This document shows, one piece after another, positions 30,317 through 49,588 of a stretch of 64,000 bases of DNA. The translations under genes and the position numbers were made by a program. This DNA comes from Polyangiales bacterium (lineage in GTDB: Bacteria; Myxococcota_A; Polyangia; Polyangiales; Ga0077539): contig JAXLYG010000005.1 in assembly GCA_046351535.1 (NCBI GenBank), positions 293,334 to 357,333 of the forward strand. The letters run 5' to 3'. Numbering within the stretch: position 1 is the stretch's first letter; each line of letters opens with the position of its first letter. A model generated the notes under the pieces. That model saw only the letters and a program-made list of their open reading frames with translations, was not told the DNA's origin and did not search any database.

Positions 30317-30752
30317 GGTGAAGTCTCCCCTCCGTGACGGCGTTGATTCACCGGAGCACAAAGCAGCGCGCGTGCCGCGGCTAAAACTCACAAAATGCCT
30401 ATATTTAAGCTGTTTTAGCGAGTCGAGCCCGTGTGGCTCGGTCGGCACACCGGGCCGCGAGGGCACAGCGCGAGGTCCGCGGCGCGCTTCGGCGACCTGA
30501 CACGGCGGCCACGCGCGCTCGCGCTGCGGGTCGGTGACGAGCAAGACGAACGACGGACGCGGCGTCGTGCTCGCGGTCGCACGGGCGATGGGAGCGTCGC
30601 GCGAGCGTCAAGATCATGGCGCCAGAGGGACGCTTCGGAGGGGGTGTCGCCAGGGACCGGGTGGGGCGTCCGGGGGGCTGGTGCGCATCGTGCCTTGCTC
30701 CGGGCTTTCAACCCCATGACGTTCGTCATGGTGGGGCCACGAGGAGAGGGCA
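30317..30752. promoter_or_regulatory. Divergent intergenic region with a locally AT-rich segment (30380-30430: aaactcacaaaatgcctatatttaagctgtttt)
   Basis: Only conspicuously AT-rich 50 bp in the window, lying between divergently transcribed VWA and cytochrome genes. Contains a tatattta -10-like hexamer. Confidence 0.35.
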
Positions 30753-33677: not shown

Positions 33678-33680
33678 GCC

Positions 33681-34562
33681 ATGAAGCACCTCGCCCTCGC
33701 TCCCCTCTTCGTCTGCGCGGCCTTGTCGCTCTCGTGCAAGGTCGCGCAGCCTCCTCCCGCCACGCCTCATCAACGCGTCGAGGGCGAGGTGATCGCCACG
33801 GTCAACGGGGTCCCGCTCACGCGCCAGGAGCTCCCTCCGAGCGCGCACGGGCAGGGGCCTCGCAGCGCGACGGGACCCGTCGACGCCGACCTCCTCTCAC
33901 GCCTCGTCGAGGACGAGGTGCTCGCGCAGTACGCCACCTCCACGGGTCTCGATCGCGACCCGACGTACCGCGCCGAGCTCGCCCGCGCCGAGGCCGGGTT
34001 CCGCGCGTGGCGGCGCGCGCAGCTCGTCGCCCTCGCCGATCGCGCGCAGTCAAACGGGCTCAACGTCACCGAGGCCGAGGCGCGGAGCTGGTACGAGACC
34101 CACACCGCGCGGGCGCGTGCCGAGGTTCGCGTCGCGCAGATCCTCGTTCGCGACGAGGCCACGGCCAACCAGCTCCTCGCGGAGCTCCGCGCGGGCGCGG
34201 CCTTCGATGACGTCGCCCGCAGGCTCGCGCCCCCGAGCGACGATCCCGCTGCGAAGCCCTGGGAGATGGGCCCGCTGCGCTGGCACCAGCTCCCCGACGC
34301 GTGGCGTGGCCCCGTCGACGCGCTCCAGGTCGGCCAGGTCTCCGCCGTGATCCGCGGACCCAACCGACGCTTCTGGATCGTGAAGCTCCTCGACCGTCGC
34401 GAGAACGCCTCGCTCACGTTCGAGACGACGCGTGACACGATCGTGCAGGTGCTCCGCGACGAGCGCGCCATCGAAGCGCGCGCGCGCCTCCGAGAGACGC
34501 TCCGCCGTGCGGCCCGCGTCGACGTCACCCCGCAGCGCCCCGCCCCCACCGAAACCCGCTGA
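33681..34562 (+). CDS. Parvulin-type peptidyl-prolyl cis-trans isomerase lipoprotein (SurA/PrsA-like)
   Basis: Lipobox LSLSCK. SurA-like N-terminal chaperone region. PpiC domain (EVRVAQILV...WEMGPLRWHQLPDAW...RFWIVK). Confidence 0.7.
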   Translation: MKHLALAPLFVCAALSLSCKVAQPPPATPHQRVEGEVIATVNGVPLTRQELPPSAHGQGPRSATGPVDADLLSRLVEDEVLAQYATSTGLDRDPTYRAELARAEAGFRAWRRAQLVALADRAQSNGLNVTEAEARSWYETHTARARAEVRVAQILVRDEATANQLLAELRAGAAFDDVARRLAPPSDDPAAKPWEMGPLRWHQLPDAWRGPVDALQVGQVSAVIRGPNRRFWIVKLLDRRENASLTFETTRDTIVQVLRDERAIEARARLRETLRRAARVDVTPQRPAPTETR

Positions 34563-34837
34563 TCTCGTCGCCTCGCGCCGCGCGCGGGTCGTCTCGTGCG
34601 CTGTGCCCACGCGACGACGCGCAGTCCGCGCGGCCCCTACGCCCGACGTCGCCCATCTGACGCCCCATGGCGCACGCCATCCACGCACTGCGCGCGTGTA
34701 TGCACCGGGTTCGTTCGCGCTCGCGGTGCCTGCGCGATGTCATATCGCCATGAATCGGGCGTCTCGCGTGCGCAGCGGCGGGCGCGCTCGGCGCGCGGAG
34801 GTGTGGCGCGGGGAATGCTCAATGGGCCTCTTCGAGG

Positions 34838-36949
34838 ATGCAGATGACGGACGCACGACGTTGGGCGCTTGGGGTGATGCTCGTCGCGATGGTGGGATGC
34901 GGCGCGGACGGCGCTCCTGGCGAGCGCGGCCCTGCCGGTCCGGCCGGTGACGCTGGCGCGCAGGGGCCTCAGGGCGAGCGGGGCCCGCAGGGCGATCGCG
35001 GTCCGCAGGGCGAGCCCGGCGACGCGGCGGTGACCGTGGTGTCGGGGAGCTTCCCCGCCGCGGGGCTCACGCTGAACGTCCTCGACGCGACGGTGAGCGC
35101 CTCGGGCGCGGTGTCGGTGCACTTCAACCTCCGCGACGGGCGCTCGCAGGCCCTCACGCCGCGCGACACCGACCTCCTCGGCTTCATGGTGAGCGAGGTG
35201 GTGCTCGACGCGATGGGTCAGCCGCTGCGCTACCGCGCGCTCACGACCTGCCCCGCCGACGCGCCCCACGCCGACGTCCGTCAGTCGTGCATGGAGTGGG
35301 CGATGCGGAGCGGCGCGCTCGCGAGCGACCGCCTCACGCAGCGCGCGGACCTCTCGTGGGACTTCCGTCTCGCGACGGTGGTGCCCGCGTCGACGACGCC
35401 CACGCGCACGCTCTCGATCACCGCGCAGGGTCTCCGCCCCGGTCTGTATGCGTCGGACCCCGCCTCGGTCTCGACGGCGGTCTTCGACTTCGTGCCCGGC
35501 GGCGGCACGCCCGTCTCCGTTCGCGTGGTCGACCCCGCGGGCTGCGAGGGCTGCCACCAGACCGTGCGCGCGCACGGCGGCACCCGCGTCAACGCGACGA
35601 TGTGCGTCCGCTGCCACACCGACGAGCTCTCCGACCCCGACACCGGGAACAGCCTCAGCTTCGGCGTGATGGTTCACAAGATCCACCGCGGCGAGCACCT
35701 GCCGAGCGTCGTGGGCGGCGCGCCCTATCGCATCGTGGGGTACCGCGGCGCGGTCTCGGACTTCAGCGACGTCGCGTACCCGCAGGACCTCCGCAACTGC
35801 GAGTCGTGTCACCGCCCCACCACCGCGGCGCCGGACTCCGTTCGCTTCGCGCAGCGCCCCGCGGAGCGCATCTGCACGAGCTGCCACGACCGCACGTACT
35901 TCAGCGACGGCGCCTTGCCCACGGGCTACACGCGCCACCCGCCGGGGATGGTCGACCCGACGCAGTGCACGACCTGCCACCGCGAGACGGGCGGGCTCAG
36001 CGGCATCCGCGACAAGCACATGCTCCCGTGGCGTCGCCCCGGCGCGCCCACGATCGCGGCCACCATCGAGTCGGTGACGGGGCTCATCCCGAACACCGCG
36101 CCCACGGTGGAGTTCACCCTCCGCTCGCGTGAGGGCACGGCGATCACCGACCTCTCGGCGCTCTCTCGCCTGGGTTTTCTCATCAACGGCCCGACGGCGC
36201 CCGCGTACTCGCTGCCCGGCGTGGTGCTCCAGGCCACGGGGACCGCGGCGGTGGGCGTGACGACGAACCTCGGCGGCGGACGCTACCGCTGGGTGGCGCC
36301 CATGTCGGCCGCGCTGCCTGCGACCGCCTCGGGGACCTGGGCCATCGGCATCGAGGCGCAGCGCACCGAGACCCTCGCGGACATGACCACGTTCCGTCAC
36401 GGCGCGACCAACCCCGTCGCGTACTCGTCGGTGGCGGGCGGGCCCGTCGTGCGACGCCGTCAGGTCGTCGAGATCGCGCGCTGCAACAACTGCCACGGCC
36501 GCCTCGCGCTGCACGGGAACAATCGCATCGACAACCCCGAGTACTGCGTGATGTGCCACACGCCCACGGCGACCGACGTCTCGCAGCGTCCGTCGACGGC
36601 GGGCGCGCCGCAGAGCATCGACTTCGCGAACATGGTCCACCGGATCCACACGGGCGCGAACCTCCCGAGCGTGGCCGAGGGGCGGCCGTACGTGATCTAT
36701 GGCTTCGGCGGGTCGCGCAACGACTTCTCGAACGTGCGCTTCCCGCAGTCGCTCCTGAACTGCTCGGCGTGCCACGCCGACGGGACCACGACGACGCCCT
36801 CGGCGCGCGCCTGCACGGGCTGCCACGACAGCACCGCGACGATCGCGCACGCGCAGATCAACACCACCTCCGCGGGCGTCGAGTCCTGCGCGGCGTGCCA
36901 CGGCGCGGGGCGGACCTTCTCCGTCGCGACGTCGCACCCGGCGCCGTGA
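34838..36949 (+). CDS. Decaheme c-type cytochrome lipoprotein (703 aa) with N-terminal collagen-like Gly-X-Y repeat; paralog of 30753..33677
   Basis: Lipobox VGCGADG. (GPAGPAGDAGAQGPQGERGPQGDRGPQGEPGD) is 11 consecutive Gly-X-Y triplets. Ten CxxCH motifs. Shares the ...CxxCH...HKIH...LPSV... blocks with the upstream cytochrome. Confidence 0.85.
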   Translation: MQMTDARRWALGVMLVAMVGCGADGAPGERGPAGPAGDAGAQGPQGERGPQGDRGPQGEPGDAAVTVVSGSFPAAGLTLNVLDATVSASGAVSVHFNLRDGRSQALTPRDTDLLGFMVSEVVLDAMGQPLRYRALTTCPADAPHADVRQSCMEWAMRSGALASDRLTQRADLSWDFRLATVVPASTTPTRTLSITAQGLRPGLYASDPASVSTAVFDFVPGGGTPVSVRVVDPAGCEGCHQTVRAHGGTRVNATMCVRCHTDELSDPDTGNSLSFGVMVHKIHRGEHLPSVVGGAPYRIVGYRGAVSDFSDVAYPQDLRNCESCHRPTTAAPDSVRFAQRPAERICTSCHDRTYFSDGALPTGYTRHPPGMVDPTQCTTCHRETGGLSGIRDKHMLPWRRPGAPTIAATIESVTGLIPNTAPTVEFTLRSREGTAITDLSALSRLGFLINGPTAPAYSLPGVVLQATGTAAVGVTTNLGGGRYRWVAPMSAALPATASGTWAIGIEAQRTETLADMTTFRHGATNPVAYSSVAGGPVVRRRQVVEIARCNNCHGRLALHGNNRIDNPEYCVMCHTPTATDVSQRPSTAGAPQSIDFANMVHRIHTGANLPSVAEGRPYVIYGFGGSRNDFSNVRFPQSLLNCSACHADGTTTTPSARACTGCHDSTATIAHAQINTTSAGVESCAACHGAGRTFSVATSHPAP

Positions 36950-36960
36950 AGGGGGATGCC

Positions 36961-37503
36961 GTGACGGTCTTCACCACCCACGCGCGCGTCGCAGCGGTCC
37001 TCGCGCTCTCCCTCACGGGCTGCGCCGATCGGCCTCGCGAGATGCGTCCCCCGCCCGACGGGGGCGCGGTGACGGTGATGCCGCGCGTGCCTCACCTCGC
37101 GACGTACCCGTGCATGCAGCGCTGCCACAACGACCGCGCGCCGAACCCCACGCCGCGGGAGATGCGCGAGTTCCACACGGGCCGCGTGCTCCGTCACGGT
37201 CCGACGATTCGCAACTGCGACTTCTGCCACCCCTCGGGCGAGCTCGATCACCTGAGGCTCATCAACGGCGACGCGGTCTCGTTCAACGAGTCGTATCGCC
37301 TCTGCGGCCAGTGCCACGGCGAGAAGCTCCGCGACTGGGAGCACGGCGTCCACGGCTCGCAGTCGGGCTCGTGGGCGGGCGCGAGGCTCCGCCGCGCGTG
37401 CACGGTCTGCCACGACCCGCACGCGCCGCAGCGCCCGCAGTTCGACCCCATCCCGCCGCCGCAACGAGACCGCGCATTCCCCGCTGGAGGACATCACCCG
37501 TGA
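36961..37503 (+). CDS. Small tetraheme cytochrome c lipoprotein (NrfB/c3-like)
   Basis: Lipobox LSLTGCAD. Heme motifs CMQRCH (CX3CH), CDFCH, CGQCH, CTVCH. The GTG start was chosen after a GGGGGA RBS; 36946 is an alternative. Confidence 0.7.
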   Translation: MTVFTTHARVAAVLALSLTGCADRPREMRPPPDGGAVTVMPRVPHLATYPCMQRCHNDRAPNPTPREMREFHTGRVLRHGPTIRNCDFCHPSGELDHLRLINGDAVSFNESYRLCGQCHGEKLRDWEHGVHGSQSGSWAGARLRRACTVCHDPHAPQRPQFDPIPPPQRDRAFPAGGHHP

Positions 37504-38435
37504 GCGAGCACGACGACCCCGAGATCGTAGAGGCGCTCGAGCGAGCGAAGGTCACCCGGCGACGCTTTCTCGCCACCGTGGGCGCCGCCTCGGCCGCCGC
37601 CTGCGCGTCGGGATGCAGCGGCGGCGGCAGCGCCCGCTCCGCGGCCTGGGAGGAGTTCTTTCAGCAGCACTACAAGCGCCTCTCCGACGAGGACAAGCGC
37701 GCCATCTTCGCGCGCCTCGAGGAGAAGGTGCGGCGCAGCCACGGCGTGCGGGTGCACATCTCCGACCCCGCGCCGATGCAGGGCGTCGAGTACGGCTACG
37801 CGCTCAACCTCTCGGCCTGCGTGGGCTGCCGCCGCTGCGAGTACGCGTGCGTGGCGGAGAACAACCAGTCGCGCGATCCCGAGATCCACTACATCAAGAT
37901 CCTTCAGATGGAGAAGGGCTCGATGGACGTCGAGCGCTCGGAGACCCAGTACGAGGGGCCCGTGCCGAGCGAGGGGCACTTCTACATGCCCGTGCAGTGC
38001 CACCAGTGCCGCGAGGCGCCCTGCGTGAAGGCCTGCCCGGTGAACGCCACGTGGACCGAGCCCGACGGGATCACCGTCGTCGACTACAACTGGTGCATCG
38101 GGTGCCGCTACTGCGAGGCCGCGTGCCCGTACTTCGCGCGGCGCTTCAACTTCGCCGAGGGCGACATCAGGCCCTCGGAGATCAACCCCGACCAGGGCTA
38201 CCTCTCGAACCGGCTGAGGCCCGCGGGCGTGGTCGAGAAGTGCACCTTCTGTCTCCACCGCGTGCGGCGGGGAGAGTATCCGGCGTGCCTCGAGGCCTGT
38301 CCGACGGGGGCGCGCAAGTTCGGCAACCTCCTCGATCCGACGAGCGAGGTCCGCCAGGTCATCGACACGAAGCGCGTCTACGTGCTCCACGAAGAGGCCG
38401 GCACGCTGCCGCGCTTCTATTACTTCTTCGACTGA
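37500..38435 (+). CDS. Tat-exported 4x[4Fe-4S] ferredoxin-type subunit (NrfC/PsrB/HybA-like)
   Basis: Twin-arginine signal (TRRRFLATVGAA). Four Cys clusters (CVGCRRCEYAC...CP; CHQCREAPCVKACP; CIGCRYCEAACP; CTFC...CLEACP). GTG start overlaps the upstream stop. Confidence 0.8.
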   Translation: MSEHDDPEIVEALERAKVTRRRFLATVGAASAAACASGCSGGGSARSAAWEEFFQQHYKRLSDEDKRAIFARLEEKVRRSHGVRVHISDPAPMQGVEYGYALNLSACVGCRRCEYACVAENNQSRDPEIHYIKILQMEKGSMDVERSETQYEGPVPSEGHFYMPVQCHQCREAPCVKACPVNATWTEPDGITVVDYNWCIGCRYCEAACPYFARRFNFAEGDIRPSEINPDQGYLSNRLRPAGVVEKCTFCLHRVRRGEYPACLEACPTGARKFGNLLDPTSEVRQVIDTKRVYVLHEEAGTLPRFYYFFD

Positions 38436-38448
38436 GGGGAATGGCGCG

Positions 38449-39699
38449 ATGGGCTCGGTGGCGATGCACGTGCGTGAGCTGTTCGCGTTTGTGAAGGCCT
38501 CGGCGGTCGAGGTCGCGCGCGGCAGCCGCGGGTACTACCGCTGGCTGGCGTTCCTGACGGCGCTGGTGGTCCTCGGCGGCCTCGCGTGGGCGCAGCAGCT
38601 CATGCGCGGGATGACCGTCACGGCGATGACCGACCAGGTCCCGTGGGGGGCCTACATCGCGAACTTCTCGTTCACCGTGGGCCTCGCGTCCGCGGCGCTC
38701 GTGATGGTCGCGCTGGCGTACATCCGTCACGACGAGCGGGCCGCCGAGCTCGTCATCGTGGGGCAGGTGATGGCCATCGCCGCGCTCACGATGGGGATGC
38801 TCTTCGTCGTCGTCGACATCGGCCGCCCCGACCGCGCGTGGCACCTCATGCCGGGCCTCGGGCGCTTCAACTTCCCCATCTCGATGCTGTCGTGGGACGT
38901 GGTCGTCCTCAACGGCTACCTGCTGCTGAACTTCTACCTCGCGACGTACACCCTCCTCGCGCGCTTCCGCGGTAGGCCCATCGACAAGAAGAAGTATCGC
39001 CCCGTGCTCGGCGCCGCGATGGTGTGGGCCGTGTCGATCCACGTGGTCGCCGCGTTCCTCTACTGCGGCCTCGCGGGCAGGCCCCACTGGCACGCCGCGG
39101 TGCTCGCGCCTCGCGTCGTCGCCTCGGCCTTCGGCAGCGGCCCCGCGATGCTCATCATCGTGCTCACGGTCATCCGCGACCGCATGAACGCCCCCGTGCG
39201 CGACGAGACCATCGGGCTCCTCCGCGGGATCGTCACGGCGGCCGTGTACGCCAACCTCTTCCTCCTCGGCGCCGAGCTCTTCACCGAGCTCTACGGCGGC
39301 TCGGTGCACTCGGCGCCGCTGCGCTACCTGCTCTTCGGGCTCCACGGTCACCACCTGCTCGTGCCGTACATGTGGCTCTCGATCGTGCTCGATCTCTTCT
39401 CGGCGACGGTGTTCTCGCTGCCGGGCCTCTTCAACCGCAAGCGCGTGCTCCTCACCGCGTGCGGCACGACCATCGTCGGCATGTGGATCGAGAAGGGCAT
39501 GGGCCACGTCATCCCGGGCTTCATTCCGAGCTCCCTCGGCGAGATCGTCGAGTACAGCCCGTCGCTCACCGAGACGCTCGTCTGCGCGGGCGTGTGGGCC
39601 GCGGGCGGGCTCGTGCTCACCCTGATGCTCAAGGTCGCGATCCCCGTCGAGTTCCACGGGCTCCGCATCGATCGCCCCGAGGCGGGAGGTGCGTCGTGA
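38449..39699 (+). CDS. NrfD/PsrC-family integral membrane quinol-interacting subunit
   Basis: 416 aa with about 10 TM helices. Its size and position after an NrfC-like gene are typical of NrfD/PsrC/ActC. Confidence 0.75.
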   Translation: MGSVAMHVRELFAFVKASAVEVARGSRGYYRWLAFLTALVVLGGLAWAQQLMRGMTVTAMTDQVPWGAYIANFSFTVGLASAALVMVALAYIRHDERAAELVIVGQVMAIAALTMGMLFVVVDIGRPDRAWHLMPGLGRFNFPISMLSWDVVVLNGYLLLNFYLATYTLLARFRGRPIDKKKYRPVLGAAMVWAVSIHVVAAFLYCGLAGRPHWHAAVLAPRVVASAFGSGPAMLIIVLTVIRDRMNAPVRDETIGLLRGIVTAAVYANLFLLGAELFTELYGGSVHSAPLRYLLFGLHGHHLLVPYMWLSIVLDLFSATVFSLPGLFNRKRVLLTACGTTIVGMWIEKGMGHVIPGFIPSSLGEIVEYSPSLTETLVCAGVWAAGGLVLTLMLKVAIPVEFHGLRIDRPEAGGAS

Positions 39700-40346
39700 G
39701 GCGCTTCTTCTTCGGGCTCGCGCTCGCGGTCACCGCGTCGTGCCAGAGCCCCACGCCCACGACGAACGTCGGCGCCGACACGCTCGACCTCGGGCTCACG
39801 CCCGCGGGCGCGGTCTCGGGCGAGCTCGACGGCGCGCGCTTCACGCTGCGTGAGGCGTGGTTCCGCGTCGATCGCAGGGAGCCGCGCGCGCGCGTCGACC
39901 TCATCCTCTCGGAGGGGCGCGCCACACGGCTCTGCGCCACGTCCGATCCGCCGCACGCGCGGCACATCCTCGTGCGCGTCCCGCGCGCGCAGTCGCTCGC
40001 CGTGGGGACCCTGCGTGGCGCGCCGGGCGCCGAGACGCCGGTCTCCGCGAACTTCGAGACCCACGCGTCGGACCACTGGGTCGGGCGACCCGGGAGCGTC
40101 GCCATCGCGATCGACACCTCGACGCCGACGCTCGTCACCGGGCGCATCCGCGCGTGCTTCGGCCCCGGCGCAGAGGGCTGCGTGGCGGGCGCCTTTCAGG
40201 CTCGTCAGTGCGTGACCGAGCTCGACCTCGACGGCCCGCTCACCGGGAACGTGCGCCCCTCGACGGACGACGCGGGCGCGCCCGCCGCCGCCCCCGCCGC
40301 AGGACACGCAGTGCCGCCGACCGAGCACGGAGGCGCGTCGCCGTGA
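39696..40346 (+). CDS. Lipoprotein of unknown function, within the cytochrome operon
   Basis: GTG start after a GGGAGG RBS, overlapping the upstream stop. Lipobox VTASCQS. Confidence 0.5.
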   Translation: MRRFFFGLALAVTASCQSPTPTTNVGADTLDLGLTPAGAVSGELDGARFTLREAWFRVDRREPRARVDLILSEGRATRLCATSDPPHARHILVRVPRAQSLAVGTLRGAPGAETPVSANFETHASDHWVGRPGSVAIAIDTSTPTLVTGRIRACFGPGAEGCVAGAFQARQCVTELDLDGPLTGNVRPSTDDAGAPAAAPAAGHAVPPTEHGGASP

Positions 40347-41926
40347 AGTCTCCAAGGCGTGAGAGAGGGGCTTCGAAGGGCGCTGCCGCGGCGCGCGTCG
40401 CGGGCGTCCTCGCGCTCACGTTGCAGGGCTGCGCCGACGTGCGCGAGACCCCCACGGTCGCCACGCCCGACTGGGAGCTCGACCTGCGCCCCGCGCTCAC
40501 CGCCGCCTGCGCCCGCTGCCACGACGGCGACACCCCCGCGGGTGACTGGGCCGTCAGCCGCTACACCGACGCCGTCTCGTGCTTCGAATCGCTCGACGGC
40601 GGCGTGGGCGTGAGCGTCGCCAATCGACTACGTCGCGCGCTCGGTCGCGACGACCACGCGTCGTACTTCAACGCCGCGCTCCGACGCAGCATCGACGCGT
40701 GGATCACTGGAGGCGCGAGGCCCCGCCGCGGATCGATGCACGAGGGCGGCTTCGTCGACCCGCGCTCCCCGTACTTTCACGGCCGACTGCTCCGCGCGTC
40801 TCGCTGGGCGCAGATGCTCGACGGCACCCGTCAGGACGCCTGCGGACGCTGTCACGACGGCACGCCCTCGCGTCCGAGCACCGTGCGAGAGGGCGCTCCC
40901 GCGGCGGGCGCGACGCCCTGCACCGCGTGTCACACCGCGACCGCGGGCGTGCTCGACTGCTCGACCTGCCACGGCGAGGGCGGACGCGTCTGGCCCGGAC
41001 CGACCTGCCGCATGCTCCCCGCCACGCACGGCGACGCGCACGCGCGACACGTGCTCCCGGGCGCGGCGCTGCTTCAGCCCCTCGCGTGCGCGACCTGTCA
41101 CCCCGCGCGCGACACCAACCTCGCGACGGGCTCGCACGGCGACGGCACCATCGACGTCCGCTTCGACACCGCGATCGTCGGCGCCACGGCGCGCTACGAC
41201 GCGGCCAGCGGGTCGTGCACCGTCTCGTGCCACAGCGCCGACGCGATGAGCCCCACGCCGCACTGGCGCACGCCGTCGTCGGGCCCCACCTGCGCGGGCT
41301 GTCACGGCGCCCCCCCGGCGGGCCACTGGACGCAGCCCTGCACCACCTGTCACTTCGAAGCCAACGCGACGGGTACCGCGCTCGCGCGCGCCGCGCTGCA
41401 CCTCAACGGCCGCGTCGACTTCGGCGACGGCACCAACAACTGCGGCTCGTGCCACGGCAGCAACGGCGACCCGTGGCCGCGCGACGCGACCCACCAGGCC
41501 CACCGCAACGCCAGCGTCACCACGCCGGTGACCTGCGACGAGTGCCACGAGGTCCCCGCCACGATCACCGCCGCGGGGCACCTCGACGATCGCGGCGCGG
41601 GCGACCTGCGCTTCGGCGCGAGGGCGACCGCGCGCGGCGCGAGGCCGTCGTACGTGAGCGGCTCGTGCGTCTCGGTCGCGTGTCACGGCGAGAACCTCAT
41701 CGGGCGCTCCGGCGTGCGCATCGCGTGGCGCGGCGGCTCCGTTGCGGGCAACTGCGTCGGATGTCACGGCGCGCCGCCCGCGCTGCCCCACTCGAACAAC
41801 GGCTCGTGTGAGCTCGTGCTGTGTCACGGCTCCGAGGTCGAGCGCGTCGACGGCGCGCTGCGGATCATCGCGTCTCAGCGCGCCTCGCACATCAACGGCG
41901 TCGTGACCGCGGGGGGTGCGCGATGA
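40343..41926 (+). CDS. 13-heme c-type cytochrome lipoprotein of the Geobacter CX(3-4)CH...CXXCH type
   Basis: Lipobox LTLQGCAD. Ten CxxCH motifs plus CTVSCH (CX3CH), CVSVACH and CELVLCH (CX4CH). GTGA overlap with the upstream gene. Confidence 0.8.
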   Translation: MKSPRRERGASKGAAAARVAGVLALTLQGCADVRETPTVATPDWELDLRPALTAACARCHDGDTPAGDWAVSRYTDAVSCFESLDGGVGVSVANRLRRALGRDDHASYFNAALRRSIDAWITGGARPRRGSMHEGGFVDPRSPYFHGRLLRASRWAQMLDGTRQDACGRCHDGTPSRPSTVREGAPAAGATPCTACHTATAGVLDCSTCHGEGGRVWPGPTCRMLPATHGDAHARHVLPGAALLQPLACATCHPARDTNLATGSHGDGTIDVRFDTAIVGATARYDAASGSCTVSCHSADAMSPTPHWRTPSSGPTCAGCHGAPPAGHWTQPCTTCHFEANATGTALARAALHLNGRVDFGDGTNNCGSCHGSNGDPWPRDATHQAHRNASVTTPVTCDECHEVPATITAAGHLDDRGAGDLRFGARATARGARPSYVSGSCVSVACHGENLIGRSGVRIAWRGGSVAGNCVGCHGAPPALPHSNNGSCELVLCHGSEVERVDGALRIIASQRASHINGVVTAGGAR

Positions 41927-43260
41927 GGCCCGCCGTCGTCATCGTGGCGCTCGTGCTCGTCGTCGAGCGCGGCGACGCCCTCGCGCAGTCGCACGCCGAG
42001 TCGCGCGACGAGTCGCACGTCAGCGTGCGCATCGACAGCGTGTTCCGCGGCGTCCCGCGCTACGTGCTCACCGCGGCCGACGGGCAGGCGAGCGCCGCCG
42101 ACCGATACTGGCGCACCGTCACGCTCGCGCCGATCATGGCGCGCGCAACGCTCGACGCGCGCGGGCTCTCGAACGGTCACCTCGAGGCGCACCTCAACGC
42201 CTGGGGCGCCGTCGACCTCGCCGCGGCGGACCCGCAGGCGTACGCGGCGGGCGACCTCGCCGTCGCGTGGGCGCGCTACGCGGCGGGGCCGTGGGGCGTG
42301 TGGGCCGGGCGACGCTTTCTCCCCTGGGGCTCGCCCGGCGGCGTGCACATCGACGGGATCGGCGGAGAGGTCATCGCGGGCGGCTTCAACGCCGAGGTGA
42401 TGGTCGGACGCCCCGTGACCCCCGCGTACGGCGCGCTGGTCGGCGCGCAGCCCTCGTTCGACGGCGTGACCGTGGCCTACGGCGCGCGCGTCGGGTGGAT
42501 GCAGGCTGGCACCTTCGCGGCCTCGGCGTCGTACCTCGAGCGCTGGGCCTACGGCGTCGCGGGCGTGCGCGCCCTCTCGCTCGACGCGTCGTTCACGCCG
42601 ACGGAGCGCCTCGACCTCCGCGCGGGGATCGCCTTCGACGCGGCCGGCGGCGGCGTCACGCAGGCGAGCGCCGACGTCGACTGGACGCCGGCGTCGTGGG
42701 GGCTCGTCGGCGCGGGCTACGCGCACGTCGACCCGTCGAGGCTCATCCCGAAATGGTCGATCTTGAGCGTGTTCGCGACGCAGGTCTTCGATGAGATGAG
42801 GGCGTCGTTCACGTGGCGTCCCTCGCGCGTGGTGTCGCTGCGCCTCGAGGGCGCCGGGCAGCGCTATGACATCCCCGGTTCGAACGAGGACGCGCGCTGG
42901 GGCTCCCGCGTCGAGGCGATGCTGCGGGTGACCTCTCGCGATCGCTCGCGGCAGGGGACGCTCTCGGCGAGCCGCCGCGATGACGGCGTGCGACCGCTCA
43001 CGCTCGTGCGCATCGCGGGCATGTGGACGCTGCCTCGCAACATCGGGGTCGCGCTCGAAGGCGCCGCGGCGCTCGACGACGACGACCCGAGCTCGCCGCG
43101 CACGTCGCTCTACGCGCGCGCCGCGGTCGACGTCCCCCTCGGACACGGCTGGCGCGTCGGCGCCGCCATCGACGGCGTGCGGTCGCCCATCGCGCTCAGC
43201 GAGCTGCGCGGGCTCGCCCACGGGACCTGGACCTTCGAGAGCCGCGGAGGCGCGCGATGA
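41923..43260 (+). CDS. Putative outer-membrane beta-barrel (porin-like) protein embedded between cytochrome genes
   Basis: Signal peptide (VALVLVVERGDALAQS). Gly/Ala/aromatic-rich with an alternating amphipathic pattern. No heme motif. ATGA overlaps on both sides. Its position matches Pcc-type porin genes. Confidence 0.45.
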   Translation: MRPAVVIVALVLVVERGDALAQSHAESRDESHVSVRIDSVFRGVPRYVLTAADGQASAADRYWRTVTLAPIMARATLDARGLSNGHLEAHLNAWGAVDLAAADPQAYAAGDLAVAWARYAAGPWGVWAGRRFLPWGSPGGVHIDGIGGEVIAGGFNAEVMVGRPVTPAYGALVGAQPSFDGVTVAYGARVGWMQAGTFAASASYLERWAYGVAGVRALSLDASFTPTERLDLRAGIAFDAAGGGVTQASADVDWTPASWGLVGAGYAHVDPSRLIPKWSILSVFATQVFDEMRASFTWRPSRVVSLRLEGAGQRYDIPGSNEDARWGSRVEAMLRVTSRDRSRQGTLSASRRDDGVRPLTLVRIAGMWTLPRNIGVALEGAAALDDDDPSSPRTSLYARAAVDVPLGHGWRVGAAIDGVRSPIALSELRGLAHGTWTFESRGGAR

Positions 43261-44321
43261 GCCGCCTCTTCGTCGTCCTCGCCGCGCTCCTCTTCGCCGT
43301 GAGCTGTCAGCGCGGAGACACCGAGCGGGTGCGCCCCGACGCGATCCGCTTCTCGCACGGCAAGCACCTGCGCGCGGGCGCGACGTGCCCGCAGTGCCAC
43401 GCGCGCGTCGTCGACCCCGCCGCGGACACCGCCCGCACGCGCAACCTCGCGCTCCCCGCGGAGGCGGTATGCACGGGCTGCCACACGCGCCCCGAGGAGC
43501 GCGCGTGCGCCTACTGCCACGCCGAGCCGCGCAACCCTCGCACGTACCTCCGCACCGACCGCGAGCTCAACTTCTCGCACGCGACGCACGTCGCCCGCGA
43601 GCGCGGCGGCTGCGTGTCGTGCCACGGCCTGCGCGCCGACACGTCGACGGTGCGGCCCTTCGAGCCCGAGATCCCGACGATGGCCGGGTGCGCCACGCGC
43701 TGCCACGACGCGGACATGCGCGCGATGAACTGCACCAAGTGTCACCGCAGCCTCGACCGCTACAGCATGGAGGACCTCGCCTTCGTGCGGCACCCCGCGG
43801 GCTTCGCGCGGCGACACGGGACGCAGGCGCGCGCCGAGAGCAACCTCTGCTCGCAGTGTCACGAGCCCAACTTCTGCGCGCGGTGCCACAACCCGAGCGC
43901 GGGCGCGCCGCTGGCCGACCTGGAGCTCATGTCGGTCGCGCGAGATTTCGTGCACCGCGGTGACTTCCAGGCGAGGCACGCCGACGAGGCGCGGCTCACG
44001 CAGAACACCTGCACGCGCTGCCACGCCGTCGAGACCTGCGACGGGTGCCACCGCACGAGCGGCATCGGCGGAGGCGTCGGCCCGAGGGCCACGCACCCCG
44101 TCGGCTGGCTCGACCCCAACTCGCCGCGCAGCCACGCGCGTGAGGCGCGGCGGAACATCCTCGCGTGCGCGTCGTGTCACGAGACCGACGCCGCGCAGGT
44201 CTGCACGCCCTGCCACCGCGAGGGCGGCGGCGCGGGCAACCCCCACCCGCCCGGATTCGCGGCGGGCTTCGATCGAACGCAGCACTCGGTCTGCCTCGTG
44301 TGCCATACACACGCGCCTTGA
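43257..44321 (+). CDS. 13-heme c-type cytochrome lipoprotein
   Basis: Lipobox LFAVSCQR. Twelve CxxCH motifs plus CATRCH (CX3CH). ATGA overlap with the upstream gene. Confidence 0.85.
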   Translation: MSRLFVVLAALLFAVSCQRGDTERVRPDAIRFSHGKHLRAGATCPQCHARVVDPAADTARTRNLALPAEAVCTGCHTRPEERACAYCHAEPRNPRTYLRTDRELNFSHATHVARERGGCVSCHGLRADTSTVRPFEPEIPTMAGCATRCHDADMRAMNCTKCHRSLDRYSMEDLAFVRHPAGFARRHGTQARAESNLCSQCHEPNFCARCHNPSAGAPLADLELMSVARDFVHRGDFQARHADEARLTQNTCTRCHAVETCDGCHRTSGIGGGVGPRATHPVGWLDPNSPRSHAREARRNILACASCHETDAAQVCTPCHREGGGAGNPHPPGFAAGFDRTQHSVCLVCHTHAP

Positions 44322-44346
44322 GACTCCGACGGAGACGTGACTTCCG

Positions 44347-44802
44347 ATGAGCGATCAACAGCGACCCCCGGACCCGAAGCGTCGAAGGCTCCTCGACGGC
44401 GCGCTCGTGGTCGCCTCCTGCGCGGCGGGCGTGTCGGCGGCGTTGCCCGCCGTGCGCTTCGCCACACCCCCGTCGGATGGGGCGACGGGAGCCTCCGCGT
44501 CGGTGCGCCGCACTGAGGTGCTCGCCGCGGGGTCGAAGCTCGTCGAGGTCGCGGGCGACGTGGTGCTCGTGGTCGCGGTGGGCGGCGAGCTCCGCGCCTT
44601 CTCCGCGCGCTGCACGCACCTCGGGTGCACGGTGCGCTACGCCCGCGCCACGGGCGAGATCGAGTGTCCGTGTCACGGCGGCCGCTTCGCCGTCGACGGG
44701 CGGGTGATCGCGGGGCCGCCTCCCGCGCCGCTCCACGAGTACGAGGTGACCGTCGCGGGCGACGACGTCGTGATCGAACGGAGGCGCGCATGGACCGGGT
44801 GA
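44347..44802 (+). CDS. Rieske [2Fe-2S] protein with Tat signal
   Basis: RRRLLDGALVVA twin-arginine signal. CTHLGC ... CPCHGG Rieske boxes. Confidence 0.9.
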   Translation: MSDQQRPPDPKRRRLLDGALVVASCAAGVSAALPAVRFATPPSDGATGASASVRRTEVLAAGSKLVEVAGDVVLVVAVGGELRAFSARCTHLGCTVRYARATGEIECPCHGGRFAVDGRVIAGPPPAPLHEYEVTVAGDDVVIERRRAWTG

Positions 44803-45815
44803 ACCCCACCGACTCGCTCGCGTCGCGCTACCCCACCGACGCCCTGCGGCTCCGCCTCACGGAGGCCCGCGTCGACGGCTCGCGCATGGCGCTGACGCTC
44901 CTGGCCGCGCTCTCCGCGGCGCTCGTCGCCGTCGAGTTCGCGACGGGCGCGCTGCTCGCGCTCTACTACCGCCCCGAGCGCGAGGGCGCCCGCGCGTCGG
45001 TGCAGTTCATCATCTCGCGCGTGGAGTTCGGCGAGCTCGTCCGATCGATCCACGTGTGGGGCTCGCACGCGCTGCTCGCGTCGCTCTTCGCGCTCGTGGG
45101 CGTGGCGCTCTTCGCGGGCGTCCACCGCCGACCGGGCGAGGTCGCCTGGTGCGCGCTGGTCACGGCGTGGTTCCTCGGGCTCGCGTCGGCCTTCACGGGC
45201 GCGATGCTCCCGTGGACGGCGCGCAGCGCGCTCGACGCGACGCTCGCCTCGGAGGCCACGTCGCGGCTGCCGATCCTCGGACCGGGCCTCCGCGCGATCG
45301 TGTTCGGCGCGCCGTCGCAGGGCGTCGACCTCGTGCGCGCGCAGGGGATCCACCTCGGCGCGCTCCCGTCGCTCTGGGGCATCGTGCTGCTCGTGGCGGT
45401 GTTCCACGCGCTCGGTCGCCTCGTGCAGGAGCCGCCGCGCGAGGGGACGCGGGTCTTCCCCGACGTCATGTTCCGCGCCGCGGCCCTCAGCGTCACGGCC
45501 TTCGGCGCCCTCCTCGCGCTCGCCTCGTGGAGGCCCGCGGGCCTCGCCGAGGCGCCGTCGCCCACGCACGCGCTCACGGGCGACCTCCGCCCGACCTGGT
45601 ACCTCGCGCCCATCGACGGTCTGCTCCGCGCCGCGCCGCCTACGATCGTAGGCATCCCCGGCGTGACCGTGCTGGTCTCGCTCGCCGCGGTGGGGGCGCT
45701 CGCCGCGCTCTCGCTGCCCCTCGTCGACCGTGGAGGCGGACGCCTCGGTCAGCGGATCGGACTCGCGCTGTATGCGCTCCTGCTGGGGGTGATGACCTTT
45801 GCGCTCCTTCGCTGA
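44790..45815 (+). CDS. Cytochrome b (bc/b6f-type, fused N- and C-terminal domains)
   Basis: ALYYRPERE...IHVWGSHALLASLF matches the His-ligand helix pattern. About 8 TM helices. Start overlaps the Rieske stop by 13 nt. Confidence 0.75.
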   Translation: MDRVNPTDSLASRYPTDALRLRLTEARVDGSRMALTLLAALSAALVAVEFATGALLALYYRPEREGARASVQFIISRVEFGELVRSIHVWGSHALLASLFALVGVALFAGVHRRPGEVAWCALVTAWFLGLASAFTGAMLPWTARSALDATLASEATSRLPILGPGLRAIVFGAPSQGVDLVRAQGIHLGALPSLWGIVLLVAVFHALGRLVQEPPREGTRVFPDVMFRAAALSVTAFGALLALASWRPAGLAEAPSPTHALTGDLRPTWYLAPIDGLLRAAPPTIVGIPGVTVLVSLAAVGALAALSLPLVDRGGGRLGQRIGLALYALLLGVMTFALLR

Positions 45816-47031
45816 CATCGCCCTCGCGCTCGCGGTCGCGCTCGCATCGACGGCCGTCGCCGCCGAGGAGCACTGCGGCCAGTGCCACGCCACCCTCCGC
45901 GAGGCGCGCCTGCGCACGCCCGCCGAGGCCCTTCGAGAGAGCGTCCACGACGCGCCTCGCGTGGGCTGCTCGGGCTGCCACGGCGGTCGCGCCTCGGAGG
46001 CCACCACGGCCGCCCACGACGCCGCCGCGGGCTTCGTCGCGCGCCCCGACCTCGCCGTCACCTCCGAGCGCTGCGGCGCCTGCCACGCCGACGCGCGCTT
46101 CATCCGCCGCGCGAGCGCGACGCTCCAGGTCGATCAGCTCGCGCTCTTTCGCGCCGACGCGCACGGCCACGCCGTCGCCGACGGCCGCGTGCGCGCGCCC
46201 TCGTGCGCCTCGTGTCACGGCGCCCACGACATCCGTCACGTCGCCGACCCCTCGTCGCCCGTAAACCCGCTGCACGTCGCAGAGACCTGCGGACGCTGCC
46301 ACGAAGGACCCACCGCGATCCGCGGCGCGCGCCCCGCGAACGAGCCTCCCTCCGCGTGGAGGGCGAGCGTCCACGGCCGGGCGCGCGTCGAGCGCGGCGA
46401 CGAGAACGCCCCCACCTGCGCGAGCTGCCACGGCGCGCACGGCGAGTTCCGCGAAGCGGGCGGACCCGACGCGCGCTGCGGGAGCTGTCACCGCGACGAG
46501 GCCGAGGCCTTCACGCGCAGCCCCCACGCGGCGCCCTTCGCGCGCCTCGGCTTCTCGGGGTGCGTGCAGTGCCACGGGTCGCACGGCGTCGGCGAGGCCG
46601 GCGGCGCGCTCCTCGGGAGCGGCTCGAGCAACGTCTGCGGTCGTTGCCACGACGGCGCGCAGAAGGCCCTCGAGACGGCCTCACGCCTCGACGCCGCCCG
46701 CGCCGGCGCGCTCCGCGCCGTCGACGAAGCGGCGGACCTCATGCGCCGCGCCGATCGCGCGGGGCTCTCGATTCCAGAAGGCGCTTCGAAGCTCGAAGAG
46801 GCCCGCGCGGCGCAGCAGCGCCTCGACGTGGCCCTCCACACGCTCGACGAGCGCGTGGTCGCGGGCGCGGTGCGCGAGGTGACGAGCGCCGCGACGGCCT
46901 CGCAGCGCGCGGCGCGCCGGACCCTCGGCCTCCGTGACCGTCAGCGTCGGGCGTGGCTCCCCGTGGTGGGCCTGCTCTTCGCGCTCGGAGCCCTGCTGGC
47001 GCTCCGCTCTCGCAACGGGGGCGACCGGTGA
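45799..47031 (+). CDS. Nonaheme c-type cytochrome with signal peptide and C-terminal TM anchor
   Basis: Nine CxxCH motifs. C-terminal WLPVVGLLFALGALLAL. A TTG start is inferred because there is no in-frame ATG; it overlaps cytochrome b by 17 nt. Confidence 0.75.
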   Translation: MRSFADIALALAVALASTAVAAEEHCGQCHATLREARLRTPAEALRESVHDAPRVGCSGCHGGRASEATTAAHDAAAGFVARPDLAVTSERCGACHADARFIRRASATLQVDQLALFRADAHGHAVADGRVRAPSCASCHGAHDIRHVADPSSPVNPLHVAETCGRCHEGPTAIRGARPANEPPSAWRASVHGRARVERGDENAPTCASCHGAHGEFREAGGPDARCGSCHRDEAEAFTRSPHAAPFARLGFSGCVQCHGSHGVGEAGGALLGSGSSNVCGRCHDGAQKALETASRLDAARAGALRAVDEAADLMRRADRAGLSIPEGASKLEEARAAQQRLDVALHTLDERVVAGAVREVTSAATASQRAARRTLGLRDRQRRAWLPVVGLLFALGALLALRSRNGGDR

Positions 47032-49301: not shown

Positions 49302-49579
49302 AACTCGACGCGGACACTCGCTCGTTACAGTTCTCCTCCGAAGAAGAGCTTCAGCGCTTTCACGACGACCTCACGGAGCTCATCCGCGTGGCCACCGTGA
49401 GCGTCACGAAGAACGTCGAGGTCGAGGTCGCCACCGAGCGCGCGCGGGAGCTCATGCGCCGCCACGCCACGGTGCTGCGCTGCCTCAACCAGCTCCGGCG
49501 CGTGCTCCCGCGCCACGCCTCGGGCGTCGACGACCACAAGGTCGCCCCCGAGCGAGGCGACCCCCCCGACGAGACCTGA
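49298..49579 (+). CDS. Small acidic hypothetical protein (93 aa), last gene of the cytochrome operon
   Basis: ATGA overlap with the cytochrome stop. Coherent, non-Arg-rich composition. Confidence 0.4.
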   Translation: MKLDADTRSLQFSSEEELQRFHDDLTELIRVATVSVTKNVEVEVATERARELMRRHATVLRCLNQLRRVLPRHASGVDDHKVAPERGDPPDET

Positions 49580-49588
49580 TCGCCTCGC

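Follow-up and report, generated by a model that had tools for sequence, protein, structure and literature searches.

Of all the steps of extracellular electron transfer (EET), the exit of electrons from the quinone pool is the one understood least. Even for Geobacter, it is not known what part is played by the NrfD-type complex (Cbc4) and the Rieske/cytochrome b-type complex (Cbc6). The locus described here encodes modules of both kinds side by side. It is located in a 64,000-nucleotide stretch (hereafter, the window) of contig JAXLYG010000005.1, from an uncultured soil or freshwater myxobacterium of the Polyangiales (Myxococcota), and consists of 14 consecutive plus-strand genes (g1 to g14, 30753–49301), covering 18.5 kb and carrying about 90 haem-binding motifs. 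An NrfD module (N module, g4–g6 with the lipoprotein g7) and a Rieske–cytochrome b module (R module, g11–g14) flank a putative porin–cytochrome conduit (g8–g10). The co-inheritance of two quinol enzymes, one of which lacks a usually invariant haem ligand, suggests an undescribed respiratory complex.

The N module can be compared with Cbc4 of Geobacter sulfurreducens (CbcSTU, GSU0068–GSU0070), in which a tetrahaem cytochrome c, a periplasmic protein with four [4Fe-4S] clusters, and a membrane subunit are encoded by one operon, as in g4–g6. Cbc4 has been proposed to be a menaquinol:cytochrome c oxidoreductase feeding EET, its physiological role being unknown. However, CbcS is a transmembrane-anchored protein of the NapC/NirT type, whereas g4 is a lipoprotein with no Cytochrom_NNT match, and Cbc4 has neither a g7-like lipoprotein nor a link to Rieske/cytochrome b genes. 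The likeness is one of architecture. NrfBCD of Escherichia coli, SirCD of Shewanella, and the trios linked to nap genes follow the same path, from the NrfD quinol site through a periplasmic iron–sulfur (FeS) protein and c haems to a periplasmic reductase. SirCD can substitute for CymA in the reduction of ferric citrate, fumarate, and dimethyl sulfoxide, and the N-module family resembles SirCD in role and Cbc4 in architecture. Nevertheless, g6 has about ten hydrophobic segments, compared with the eight transmembrane helices of NrfD, and no NrfA or NapA is encoded at the window locus. Alternative complex III (ACIII, ActABCDEF) also combines an NrfD-like quinol-oxidising subunit with a periplasmic FeS domain and a multihaem cytochrome c, but ActB counts 930–1040 amino acids, including a molybdopterin-like domain, compared with 311 for g5. 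ActD, ActE, and ActF are missing from the cluster, where the gene following g6 encodes the g7 lipoprotein.

The R module resembles the Geobacter Cbc6/ExtMNOPQS genes, located beside ExtHIJKL (GSU2930–GSU2940), where genes for a Rieske protein and a cytochrome b accompany those of large cytochromes with 10 and 12 haems, next to an outer-membrane porin (ExtI). The cluster is shared throughout Geobacter and has no proven function. Its cytochrome b is split between ExtP and ExtQ, whereas g12 is a single protein of 341 amino acids. It also has no NrfD module, while in the window the cytochrome partners carry 9 and 33 haems, and the cytochrome b lacks one ligand of haem bH. With 93 bits for a cutoff of 290, g12 is not an orthologue of ExtP by the criterion of the equivalog model NF040969, although the architecture is analogous.

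In sulfur-metabolising bacteria, NrfD-like and b-haem subunits are already associated in HmcABCDEF, which comprises the NrfD-like HmcC, the FeS protein HmcB, the cytochrome c HmcA, and the b-haem subunit HmcE. DsrMKJOP similarly combines an NrfD-like protein (DsrP), a periplasmic FeS protein (DsrO), a cytochrome c (DsrJ), and a b-haem membrane subunit (DsrM) (Calisto and Pereira). In both, the b subunit is of the NarI type and has a cytoplasmic HdrD-like partner, whereas in the window the cytochrome b is of the bc1/b6f type, its partner is a Rieske protein, and a gene for a cytoplasmic subunit is lacking. Each module has a named Geobacter analogue (Cbc4 for N, Cbc6/ExtMNOPQS for R), and the literature suggests that a conserved NrfD plus Rieske/cytochrome b unit is undescribed. 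Neither such a linked unit nor this Myxococcota cluster was found in full-text publications, most subscription-journal papers lying outside that scope.

Conservation of the paired modules

A sequence-only reading of the window had pointed to two different quinol-interacting modules between 36946 and 45815, coordinates that match g4 to g12 exactly. Position 36946 is the GTG start codon of g4 (185 amino acids), which overlaps the stop codon of g3 by 4 nucleotides, and 45815 is the stop of g12. These nine translationally coupled plus-strand genes encode a four-haem cytochrome c, a protein with a twin-arginine (Tat) signal and four [4Fe-4S] clusters, an NrfD protein, a lipoprotein, a porin–cytochrome trio, a Rieske protein, and a cytochrome b. 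Their reading frames are intact, as judged by codon-position GC and the listing of open reading frames (ORFs). Gene calls, with family matches from Pfam and NCBIfam profile searches, bear out two different quinone-interacting modules encoded by closely coupled genes, in one string with those of multihaem cytochromes that are periplasmic, porin-associated, or at the surface. The functional statements made in this text are all drawn from sequence and gene context.

All the cluster proteins were compared by tblastn with every fetched locus (numbered with the prefix L), using coverage thresholds of 40–60%. Many of these loci derive from metagenomes of lakes, groundwater, and peat. An eight-gene set recurs, encoding the g7 lipoprotein, the tetrahaem cytochrome (c4), the FeS protein, NrfD, the Rieske protein, cytochrome b, and cytochromes with 9 and 33 haems, and it is found in four gene orders. 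Order A, that of the window and nine other loci, is colinear, with the porin–cytochrome trio in between; other loci, at 56–60% cytochrome b identity, have these 11 genes, c4 to the 33-haem cytochrome, in the same order. In order B, the commonest (at least 16 loci), the N and R halves are divergent. Order C (5 loci) is compact, the Rieske gene being directly 3' of NrfD, and order D (4 loci) is divergent, with the lipoprotein gene first. In divergent loci with 53–55% NrfD identity, the genes for c4, FeS protein, NrfD, and lipoprotein run opposite to those for Rieske, cytochrome b, and the two multihaem cytochromes (MHCs), from a common intergenic region of about 300–430 bp.

N-module genes are present in 35 of the 56 metagenome loci retrieved with cytochrome b as the seed. 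The other 21 are uninformative, as they have less than 1.2 kb upstream or, for L138 and L145 (about 3 kb upstream), contain only a distant cytochrome b, with 32–39% identity. All the loci offering both a close relative and enough flanking sequence carry N-module genes. Among 80 genome loci seeded with NrfD, on the other hand, only 6 have Rieske/cytochrome b genes nearby. Together with the location of Cbc4 and Cbc6/ExtOP at separate loci in Geobacter, this agrees with the earlier impression that the arrangement is unusual. The pairwise identities of NrfD and cytochrome b co-vary (r = 0.82, for 406 non-independent pairs). Because the eight-gene set recurs in dozens of independent contigs, its co-occurrence is far above chance, and because gene order has been reshuffled repeatedly while the gene set is unchanged, the eight genes read as one functional unit, rather than two independent enzymes.

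One member of the set, g7 (39696–40346), is an orphan lipoprotein of 216 amino acids. By tblastn on the fetched loci, g7-like lipoproteins are detected only where Rieske/cytochrome b genes are also present, except in the truncated contigs L008 and L146. Its predicted structure is confident and all-beta; the protein has no cofactor motif, and fold comparison returned no informative structural relative. The weak matches of the model, all non-significant, are to lipocalin-like barrels. In addition, genes of the YceI family (polyisoprenoid/quinone-binding, lipocalin-like) recur next to units in order B (L005 15567–16274, L006 15593–16300, L007 2072–2752).

Regarding transcription, overlaps of 4 nucleotides are found at the g3/g4, g4/g5, g6/g7, g7/g8, g8/g9, g9/g10, and g13/g14 junctions, and longer ones at g11/g12 (13 nucleotides) and g12/g13 (17 nucleotides), with small gaps of 13 and 25 nucleotides at other junctions. 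The largest spacer in the cluster, 275 nucleotides, is located 5' of g3. A sigma-70 promoter scan of 30000–49900 returned no promoter-like site, and the five intrinsic terminator-like sites of this interval are not above expectation (2.9 ± 1.9 in shuffled sequence). The overlapping junctions, the lack of a predicted promoter, and the lack of excess terminators strongly suggest cotranscription. Thus, the co-transcription put forward from the letters alone is suggested for the window, whereas it does not extend to the many relatives in which the two modules are divergently transcribed.

Many relatives of type B (order B) also carry, beside the unit, a CbcL-like pair (multihaem cytochrome c and Ni_hydr_CYTB) and an ImcH-like Cytochrom_NNT protein of about 515 amino acids. 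Such genes are found in L004 (1–2577) and L005 (11904–15473), with tblastn matches in L013, L107, L120, L127, and L140, so one neighbourhood can hold four classes of quinol:cytochrome c oxidoreductase. Located 3' of the cluster in L001 (14665–20112, minus strand) is a molybdopterin oxidoreductase operon, encoding a catalytic subunit of 991 amino acids, a Fer4_11 protein, a Nitrate_red_del chaperone, a small MtrC-like cytochrome, and an Rrf2 regulator. L010 contains a 58%-identical match near position 2523, and the window does not carry the operon.

Haem ligation in the Rieske–cytochrome b module

The cytochrome b encoded by g12 (44790–45815) consists of a b6 part fused to a subunit-IV-like part (PF00033, E = 1.4e-18). 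Its alignment with spinach b6 is gap-free through helix B, anchored by the RSIH and RPxExxW motifs. Both histidines of haem bL are present (H88 and H188). At the position of the helix-B ligand of haem bH (His100 in b6), however, g12 has Leu102, and the second histidine of helix D (H206) is found at +18 from H188, rather than at +14 or +15. The set of four invariant histidines that characterizes helices B and D of bc1/b6f cytochromes b is, thus, incomplete in g12.

The same histidine pattern is found in all ten type-A loci, which form two subclades about 40% identical and have Leu, Ala, or Thr at the helix-B position; H88, H188, and H206 are the only invariant potential haem ligands of this type. 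A pseudogene or a sequencing error was considered as the origin of the missing histidine and rejected, the pattern being kept in these ten independent loci. In type C, four of the five loci encode Gln in place of the helix-B histidine, whereas the canonical four histidines are found in all type-B loci and in three of the four type-D loci. Neighbour-joining trees, calculated without support values, were used descriptively only. Since the commonest type, B, keeps the four canonical histidines, neither the pairing nor any coupling of the modules can depend on the loss of the bH ligand, and the pairing is older than this loss.

Divergence is unevenly distributed over the type-A protein. Of the residues that type B conserves, 36 of 81 on the periplasmic side are also found in type A, whereas only 9 of 47 on the cytoplasmic one are (Fisher p = 0.004, the region boundaries being approximate). 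Between types A and B, cytochrome b is 31% identical and NrfD 55%. The Qo/bL half, with the Pro and Trp of the PEWY motif and the Rieske boxes, appears to be preserved, and the bH/Qi half to be remodelled in the window's clade. In type A, haem bH would be either absent or ligated otherwise. As the helix-B histidine is lost and the cytoplasmic half has preferentially diverged, the window's enzyme is unlikely to run a canonical Q cycle.

In the survey of Kao and Hunte (2014; PMC4122944), the four histidines are taken as invariable, and deviating sequences were removed, so that bacterial cases like g12 would be filtered out. The one natural exception reported is the cytochrome b of Pyrobaculum, which is likewise Rieske-associated and systematically lacks one bH ligand (PMC4122944). 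Nevertheless, it is archaeal and unrelated, it is the second bH histidine that is lost, and there is no association with NrfD.

The Rieske protein g11 (44347–44802; 151 amino acids) is of the b6f (PetC) type (PF00355, E = 4e-15), with CTHLGC and CPCHGG boxes and a Tat signal/transmembrane anchor. It contains the CxH and CxxH boxes and the membrane anchor expected of the family. It scores 71–74 bits with the PetC models, under their cutoffs, and matches the TM_PetC anchor weakly, its best matches in the PDB being b6f Rieske proteins. High-potential Rieske proteins have Ser and Tyr as hydrogen-bond donors, as established by mutagenesis. As its box II (CPCHGGRF) is devoid of both donors, g11 fits a low-potential, menaquinol-type centre.

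The remaining two subunits are multihaem cytochromes. The product of g13 (MHC-A, 45799–47031; 410 amino acids) has nine CxxCH motifs, a signal peptide, and a C-terminal transmembrane anchor, and may take the place of cytochrome c1/f. The nine motifs and the hydrophobic C-terminal segment are found in all five homologues examined. That of g14 (MHC-B, 47028–49301; 757 amino acids) has an N-terminal transmembrane anchor and 33 CxxCH motifs, or about one haem per 23 amino acids. Exactly 33 motifs are present in the five homologues examined, at about 50% identity (L001 12233–14452, L002 12233–14446, L004 2804–5140, L005 2073–4346, L007 2784–5066). The 9 and 33 motifs are, thus, kept across clades at this level of identity, each protein having a hydrophobic terminal segment. 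Judging from its haem count, g14 is in principle long enough to span the periplasm, and is probably a periplasm-spanning haem wire.

The NrfD module and its relatives

The first gene of the N module, g4 (c4, 36946–37503), encodes a tetrahaem cytochrome c lipoprotein of 185 amino acids with weak c7/c3 Pfam matches. Its motifs are three CxxCH and one CxxxCH (CMQRCH, CDFCH, CGQCH, and CTVCH), and four haem motifs are found in all seven homologues examined. It is the putative periplasmic haem subunit of the NrfD module. The first motif (residues 56–61) is CxxxCH in the type-A proteins examined (window, L001, and L002), and CxxCH in the type-B and Nap-linked relatives examined. The FeS protein g5 (37500–38435; 311 amino acids) has a twin-arginine signal (RRRF) and 16 cysteines in four [4Fe-4S] motifs, and is of the NrfC/PsrB/DsrO type (Fer4_11, E = 9e-19). 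The quinone-site subunit g6 (38449–39699; 416 amino acids) is an integral membrane protein of the NrfD family (PF03916, E = 1.4e-34), its approximately ten hydrophobic segments being predicted by hydropathy. It is the only NrfD-family gene in 30753–49301.

The designation of these genes as NrfB/C/D-like, given from the sequence alone, holds for the NrfD family and fails for NrfBCD proper. All the NCBIfam scores of g5 are below cutoff, in the order DsrO (159.8 bits, cutoff 200), ArrB (144), QrcC (136), TtrB, and NrfC (TIGR03149; 108, cutoff 378). For g6, the best model is DsrP (350.7 bits, borderline for a cutoff of 350), followed by QrcD (34) and TtrC (26). Among solved structures, the relatives of g5 are ArrB, PsrB, and ActB, the latter through its C-terminal FeS part only (ActB residues ~680–1020), while the sole PDB match of g6 is a weak one to ActC of ACIII (E = 1e-4). 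It had been proposed to ask whether the genes group with ACIII, Psr, or true Nrf proteins; according to profile scores and solved-structure matches, they group with none of the three. The nearest models are DsrP/DsrO, and the family context is NapAB.

Three identities were consequently rejected for the N module. ACIII was discarded as there is no ActB-type subunit and no second NrfD-like subunit; the cluster also lacks genes for ActD/E/F, NrfA, and molybdopterin subunits and gives no Molybdopterin Pfam match. True NrfBCD was discarded as scores are far under the cutoffs and NrfA is missing; the cluster has no NrfD-equivalog match and no Cytochrom_C552 protein, and g4 has four haem motifs, whereas NrfB and NrfA are pentahaem. 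The Dsr complex was discarded as DsrMK are not encoded, DsrM, DsrK, and DsrJ being found neither in the cluster nor in the window. The NrfD genes, therefore, do not constitute a separate ACIII or Nrf unit; such a unit would have spoken against the sequence-only reading.

The search of the genome collection, seeded with an NrfD alignment, yielded the 80 loci mentioned above, mainly from Myxococcota, Verrucomicrobiota, and Planctomycetota. Virtually all retain the c4–FeS–NrfD trio. Among the 74 without Rieske/cytochrome b genes, it is adjoined by NapAB in 50, and the N-module family is, therefore, probably a periplasm-facing menaquinol dehydrogenase serving periplasmic reductases. A 2023 study of metagenome-assembled genomes (MAGs) had previously drawn attention to clusters of this type next to nap genes, considering them unlike any described NrfD complex; two of its MAGs, OFTM8 and OFTM33, are among the NrfD-seeded loci.

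Relatives of g6 in Phycisphaerales/Planctomycetota MAGs (P0085, i.e., L090 8001–9281, and P0061) are labelled 'DsrMKJOP subunit DsrP' at source (PGAP). Since the P0085 locus contains NapAB and no dsr genes, the DsrP name is probably wrong for Nap-linked NrfD proteins, and the 350-bit DsrP cutoff appears to take in the Nap-linked family. This probable mis-annotation deserves to be flagged. Finally, a hemerythrin domain (PF01814) is fused to the NrfD homologues P0061 and P0113, and a separate hemerythrin gene is found near the unit in L007 (15846–16511); this may constitute a link to O2/NO or redox sensing.

Electron flow and the remaining genes of the locus

According to the reading favoured here, in which we place about even confidence, the region from g4 to g12 is the inner-membrane core of a 14-gene EET operon, working outward with two coupled menaquinol-oxidising modules. 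Both would oxidise menaquinol at periplasm-facing sites and pass the electrons into membrane-anchored multihaem chains, which would deliver them to the porin–cytochrome complex and on to two MtrC/OmcA-type surface decahaems. The latter would probably pass them on to Fe(III)/Mn(IV) minerals or to other acceptors outside the cell. The two MtrC/OmcA surface cytochromes, with a Geobacter-type CxxxxCH cytochrome beside the putative porin, suggest the outward direction, and the association of the family with NapAB suggests that the N module oxidises quinol. Precedents exist for single modules in EET (Cbc4 and Cbc6/Ext in Geobacter, SirCD in Shewanella). The window's R module would probably run without a classical Q cycle, and, canonical bH ligation being lost, the second electron would have to leave by another route. 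Direction of flow, physical association of the modules, and fate of the bL electron are, thus, predictions, while gene content, motifs, conservation, co-occurrence, and ligand loss are directly observed.

Several points weigh against this outward reading. A Rieske centre, which with menaquinol is typically above +100 mV, donates electrons poorly to multihaem chains of low potential, and for this reason bc-type complexes have not become established as EET enzymes in Geobacter. Cotranscription would leave no room for acceptor-dependent regulation of the kind seen for ImcH, CbcL, and CbcBA, and the porin assignment of g9 comes from gene context. Simple parallel operation does not explain the obligate link of two quinol oxidases; this link, the pairing-specific g7, and the loss of the bH ligand in two groups count against it and motivate a more tightly coupled alternative. 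In addition, the Qo motif of g12 is PTWY, and PSWF, PSWY, or PPWY in relatives, with Pro and Trp conserved and the acidic residue of P-E/D-W-Y absent. The A. ferrooxidans (Acidithiobacillus ferrooxidans) complex is known to run in reverse. Acid-less Qo motifs are also found in this species (PPWY) and in Geobacter metallireducens (APWY), for which a reversed Q cycle reducing menaquinone has been proposed (PMC4122944).

The motif similarity favours electron uptake, in which electrons from Fe(II), Mn(II), reduced humics, or a cathode would enter by the surface cytochromes and porin, and one or both modules, reversed by the proton-motive force, would reduce menaquinone. The PetI bc1 complex of A. 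ferrooxidans runs in this way, and the same has been proposed for ACIII in neutrophilic iron oxidisers. NrfD-type complexes can indeed act as quinone reductases (e.g., Qrc), and the P450 and flavin monooxygenase genes of the window suggest an oxygen-using host. Uptake is nevertheless quite improbable in our estimation: metal reducers are characterized by MtrC/OmcA decahaems and by CxxxxCH cytochromes of the OmcB kind; neither the cluster nor the window as a whole encodes a terminal oxidase, a cupredoxin, Cyc2, or a small soluble cytochrome c; and N-module relatives serve NapAB, in the quinol-oxidising direction. The more tightly coupled alternative is a hybrid supercomplex, wired on the periplasmic side and performing a split Q cycle or true bifurcation, which we consider unlikely. 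The Qo site would send one electron via the Rieske protein to the 9-/33-haem chain and the second, via haem bL, to the FeS/tetrahaem chain of an N module that g7, as the pairing-specific subunit, helps to dock. The bL electron would then re-reduce menaquinone at NrfD, with protons entering through the NrfD channel and the N module replacing bH/Qi, or reduce low-potential extracellular acceptors. The window's clade would have given up the classical bH/Qi branch, and bifurcation would feed the 33-haem wire.

The obligate linkage of eight genes in four orders, one encoding a pairing-specific lipoprotein, is in favour of such a hybrid. So are the absence of the helix-B bH ligand in two separate groups of the NrfD-linked cytochrome b family (Leu/Ala/Thr in type A, Gln in type C), the preferential divergence of the cytoplasmic half in type A, and the much faster divergence of cytochrome b than of NrfD between types A and B. 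Dsr and Hmc already join NrfD-like and b-haem subunits under a shared periplasmic FeS protein, and CbcS-type tetrahaems titrate near −140 mV, which is compatible with electrons from haem bL. However, none of the four canonical histidines is lost in the commonest type (B, at least 16 loci), the N-module family is elsewhere a partner of NapAB, oxidising quinol, no gene fusion joins the modules, and g7 offers neither a cofactor motif nor an informative fold match. The most doubtful of the readings is that of two independent, redundant quinol:cytochrome c oxidoreductases gathered in an EET island, uncoupled and each serving a different acceptor potential, like ImcH, CbcL, and CbcBA. Geobacter runs several such complexes in parallel, type B has N and R as separate transcription units, and the CbcL- and ImcH-like genes in the same neighbourhood of relatives lend some support to an island. 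The latter are not constant partners, though: they come and go, while the set of eight has survived four or more rearrangements intact. Moreover, wherever a locus is informative, this cytochrome b family is accompanied by the N module, g7 is pairing-specific, and the two modules co-diverge.

Obligate pairing, a pairing-specific subunit, 9- and 33-haem partners, and repeated loss of the bH ligand make this a concrete and testable system. It could answer whether a Rieske/cytochrome b Qo site can work without a Q cycle, whether NrfD modules can replace the Qi branch, and how such complexes connect to a periplasm-spanning haem wire. It also extends candidate mineral or electrode respiration to Polyangiales-type Myxococcota, usually seen as aerobic heterotrophs.

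The porin–cytochrome trio begins with g8 (40343–41926), encoding a multihaem lipoprotein of 527 amino acids with ten CxxCH and two CxxxxCH motifs (TIGR01904, 75.6 bits for a cutoff of 27). Its domain is the Geobacter-type CxxxxCH/CxxCH one, OmcB-like, found in porin–cytochrome components. The following gene, g9 (41923–43260), encodes a secreted protein of 445 amino acids, without haem motifs or internal transmembrane helices and with no family match in Pfam or NCBIfam, which is putatively an outer-membrane beta-barrel porin. A homologue (47–70% identity) is found between the same two cytochromes in all type-A loci, while the single-sequence AlphaFold2 model, with a pLDDT of 30, is too low in confidence to inform on a barrel. 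The trio ends with g10 (43257–44321), a c7-type multihaem lipoprotein of 354 amino acids with 12 CxxCH motifs (Cytochrome_C7, E = 1e-12). The layout is, thus, that of a putative porin gene with a multihaem cytochrome gene on either side, g8 being the OmcB-like one, with CxxxxCH motifs.

As the G+C content of the window is about 72%, raw ORF lists are noisy, and genes were called by third-position GC; start codons were hand-checked and remain predictions. The cluster is bordered by unrelated genes on the opposite strand, encoding a VWA protein and a solute symporter, and the remaining window genes are housekeeping. A tRNA scan of the window found none. A cytochrome P450 and a flavin-containing monooxygenase, both oxygen-dependent, are encoded at 16485–17831 and 27199–28656, which suggests a facultative, rather than strictly anaerobic, host.

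The 5' end of the cluster encodes the surface cytochromes. Both g1 (30753–33677; 974 amino acids; PF22113, E = 5e-37) and g3 (34838–36949; 703 amino acids; PF22113, E = 4e-45) are decahaem lipoproteins with a lipobox and ten CxxCH motifs, g1 being MtrC/OmcA-like and g3 MtrC-like, and both have the MtrC/MtrF domain II/IV of surface decahaems. Between them, g2 (33681–34562) encodes a PpiC-type peptidyl-prolyl isomerase lipoprotein (PF13145, E = 2e-13), also present in L001, which is probably a folding helper. Directly past its lipobox, g3 contains 14 collagen-like G-X-Y triplets (34901–35026; Collagen PF01391, E = 2e-7). A (G-X-Y)8 repeat of the 'GTN' type occupies the same place in g1 (30924–30995), and the last gene of L004 (20622–21266) likewise combines Collagen and MtrC domains. 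These collagen-like repeats hint at trimeric, stalk-mounted surface cytochromes.

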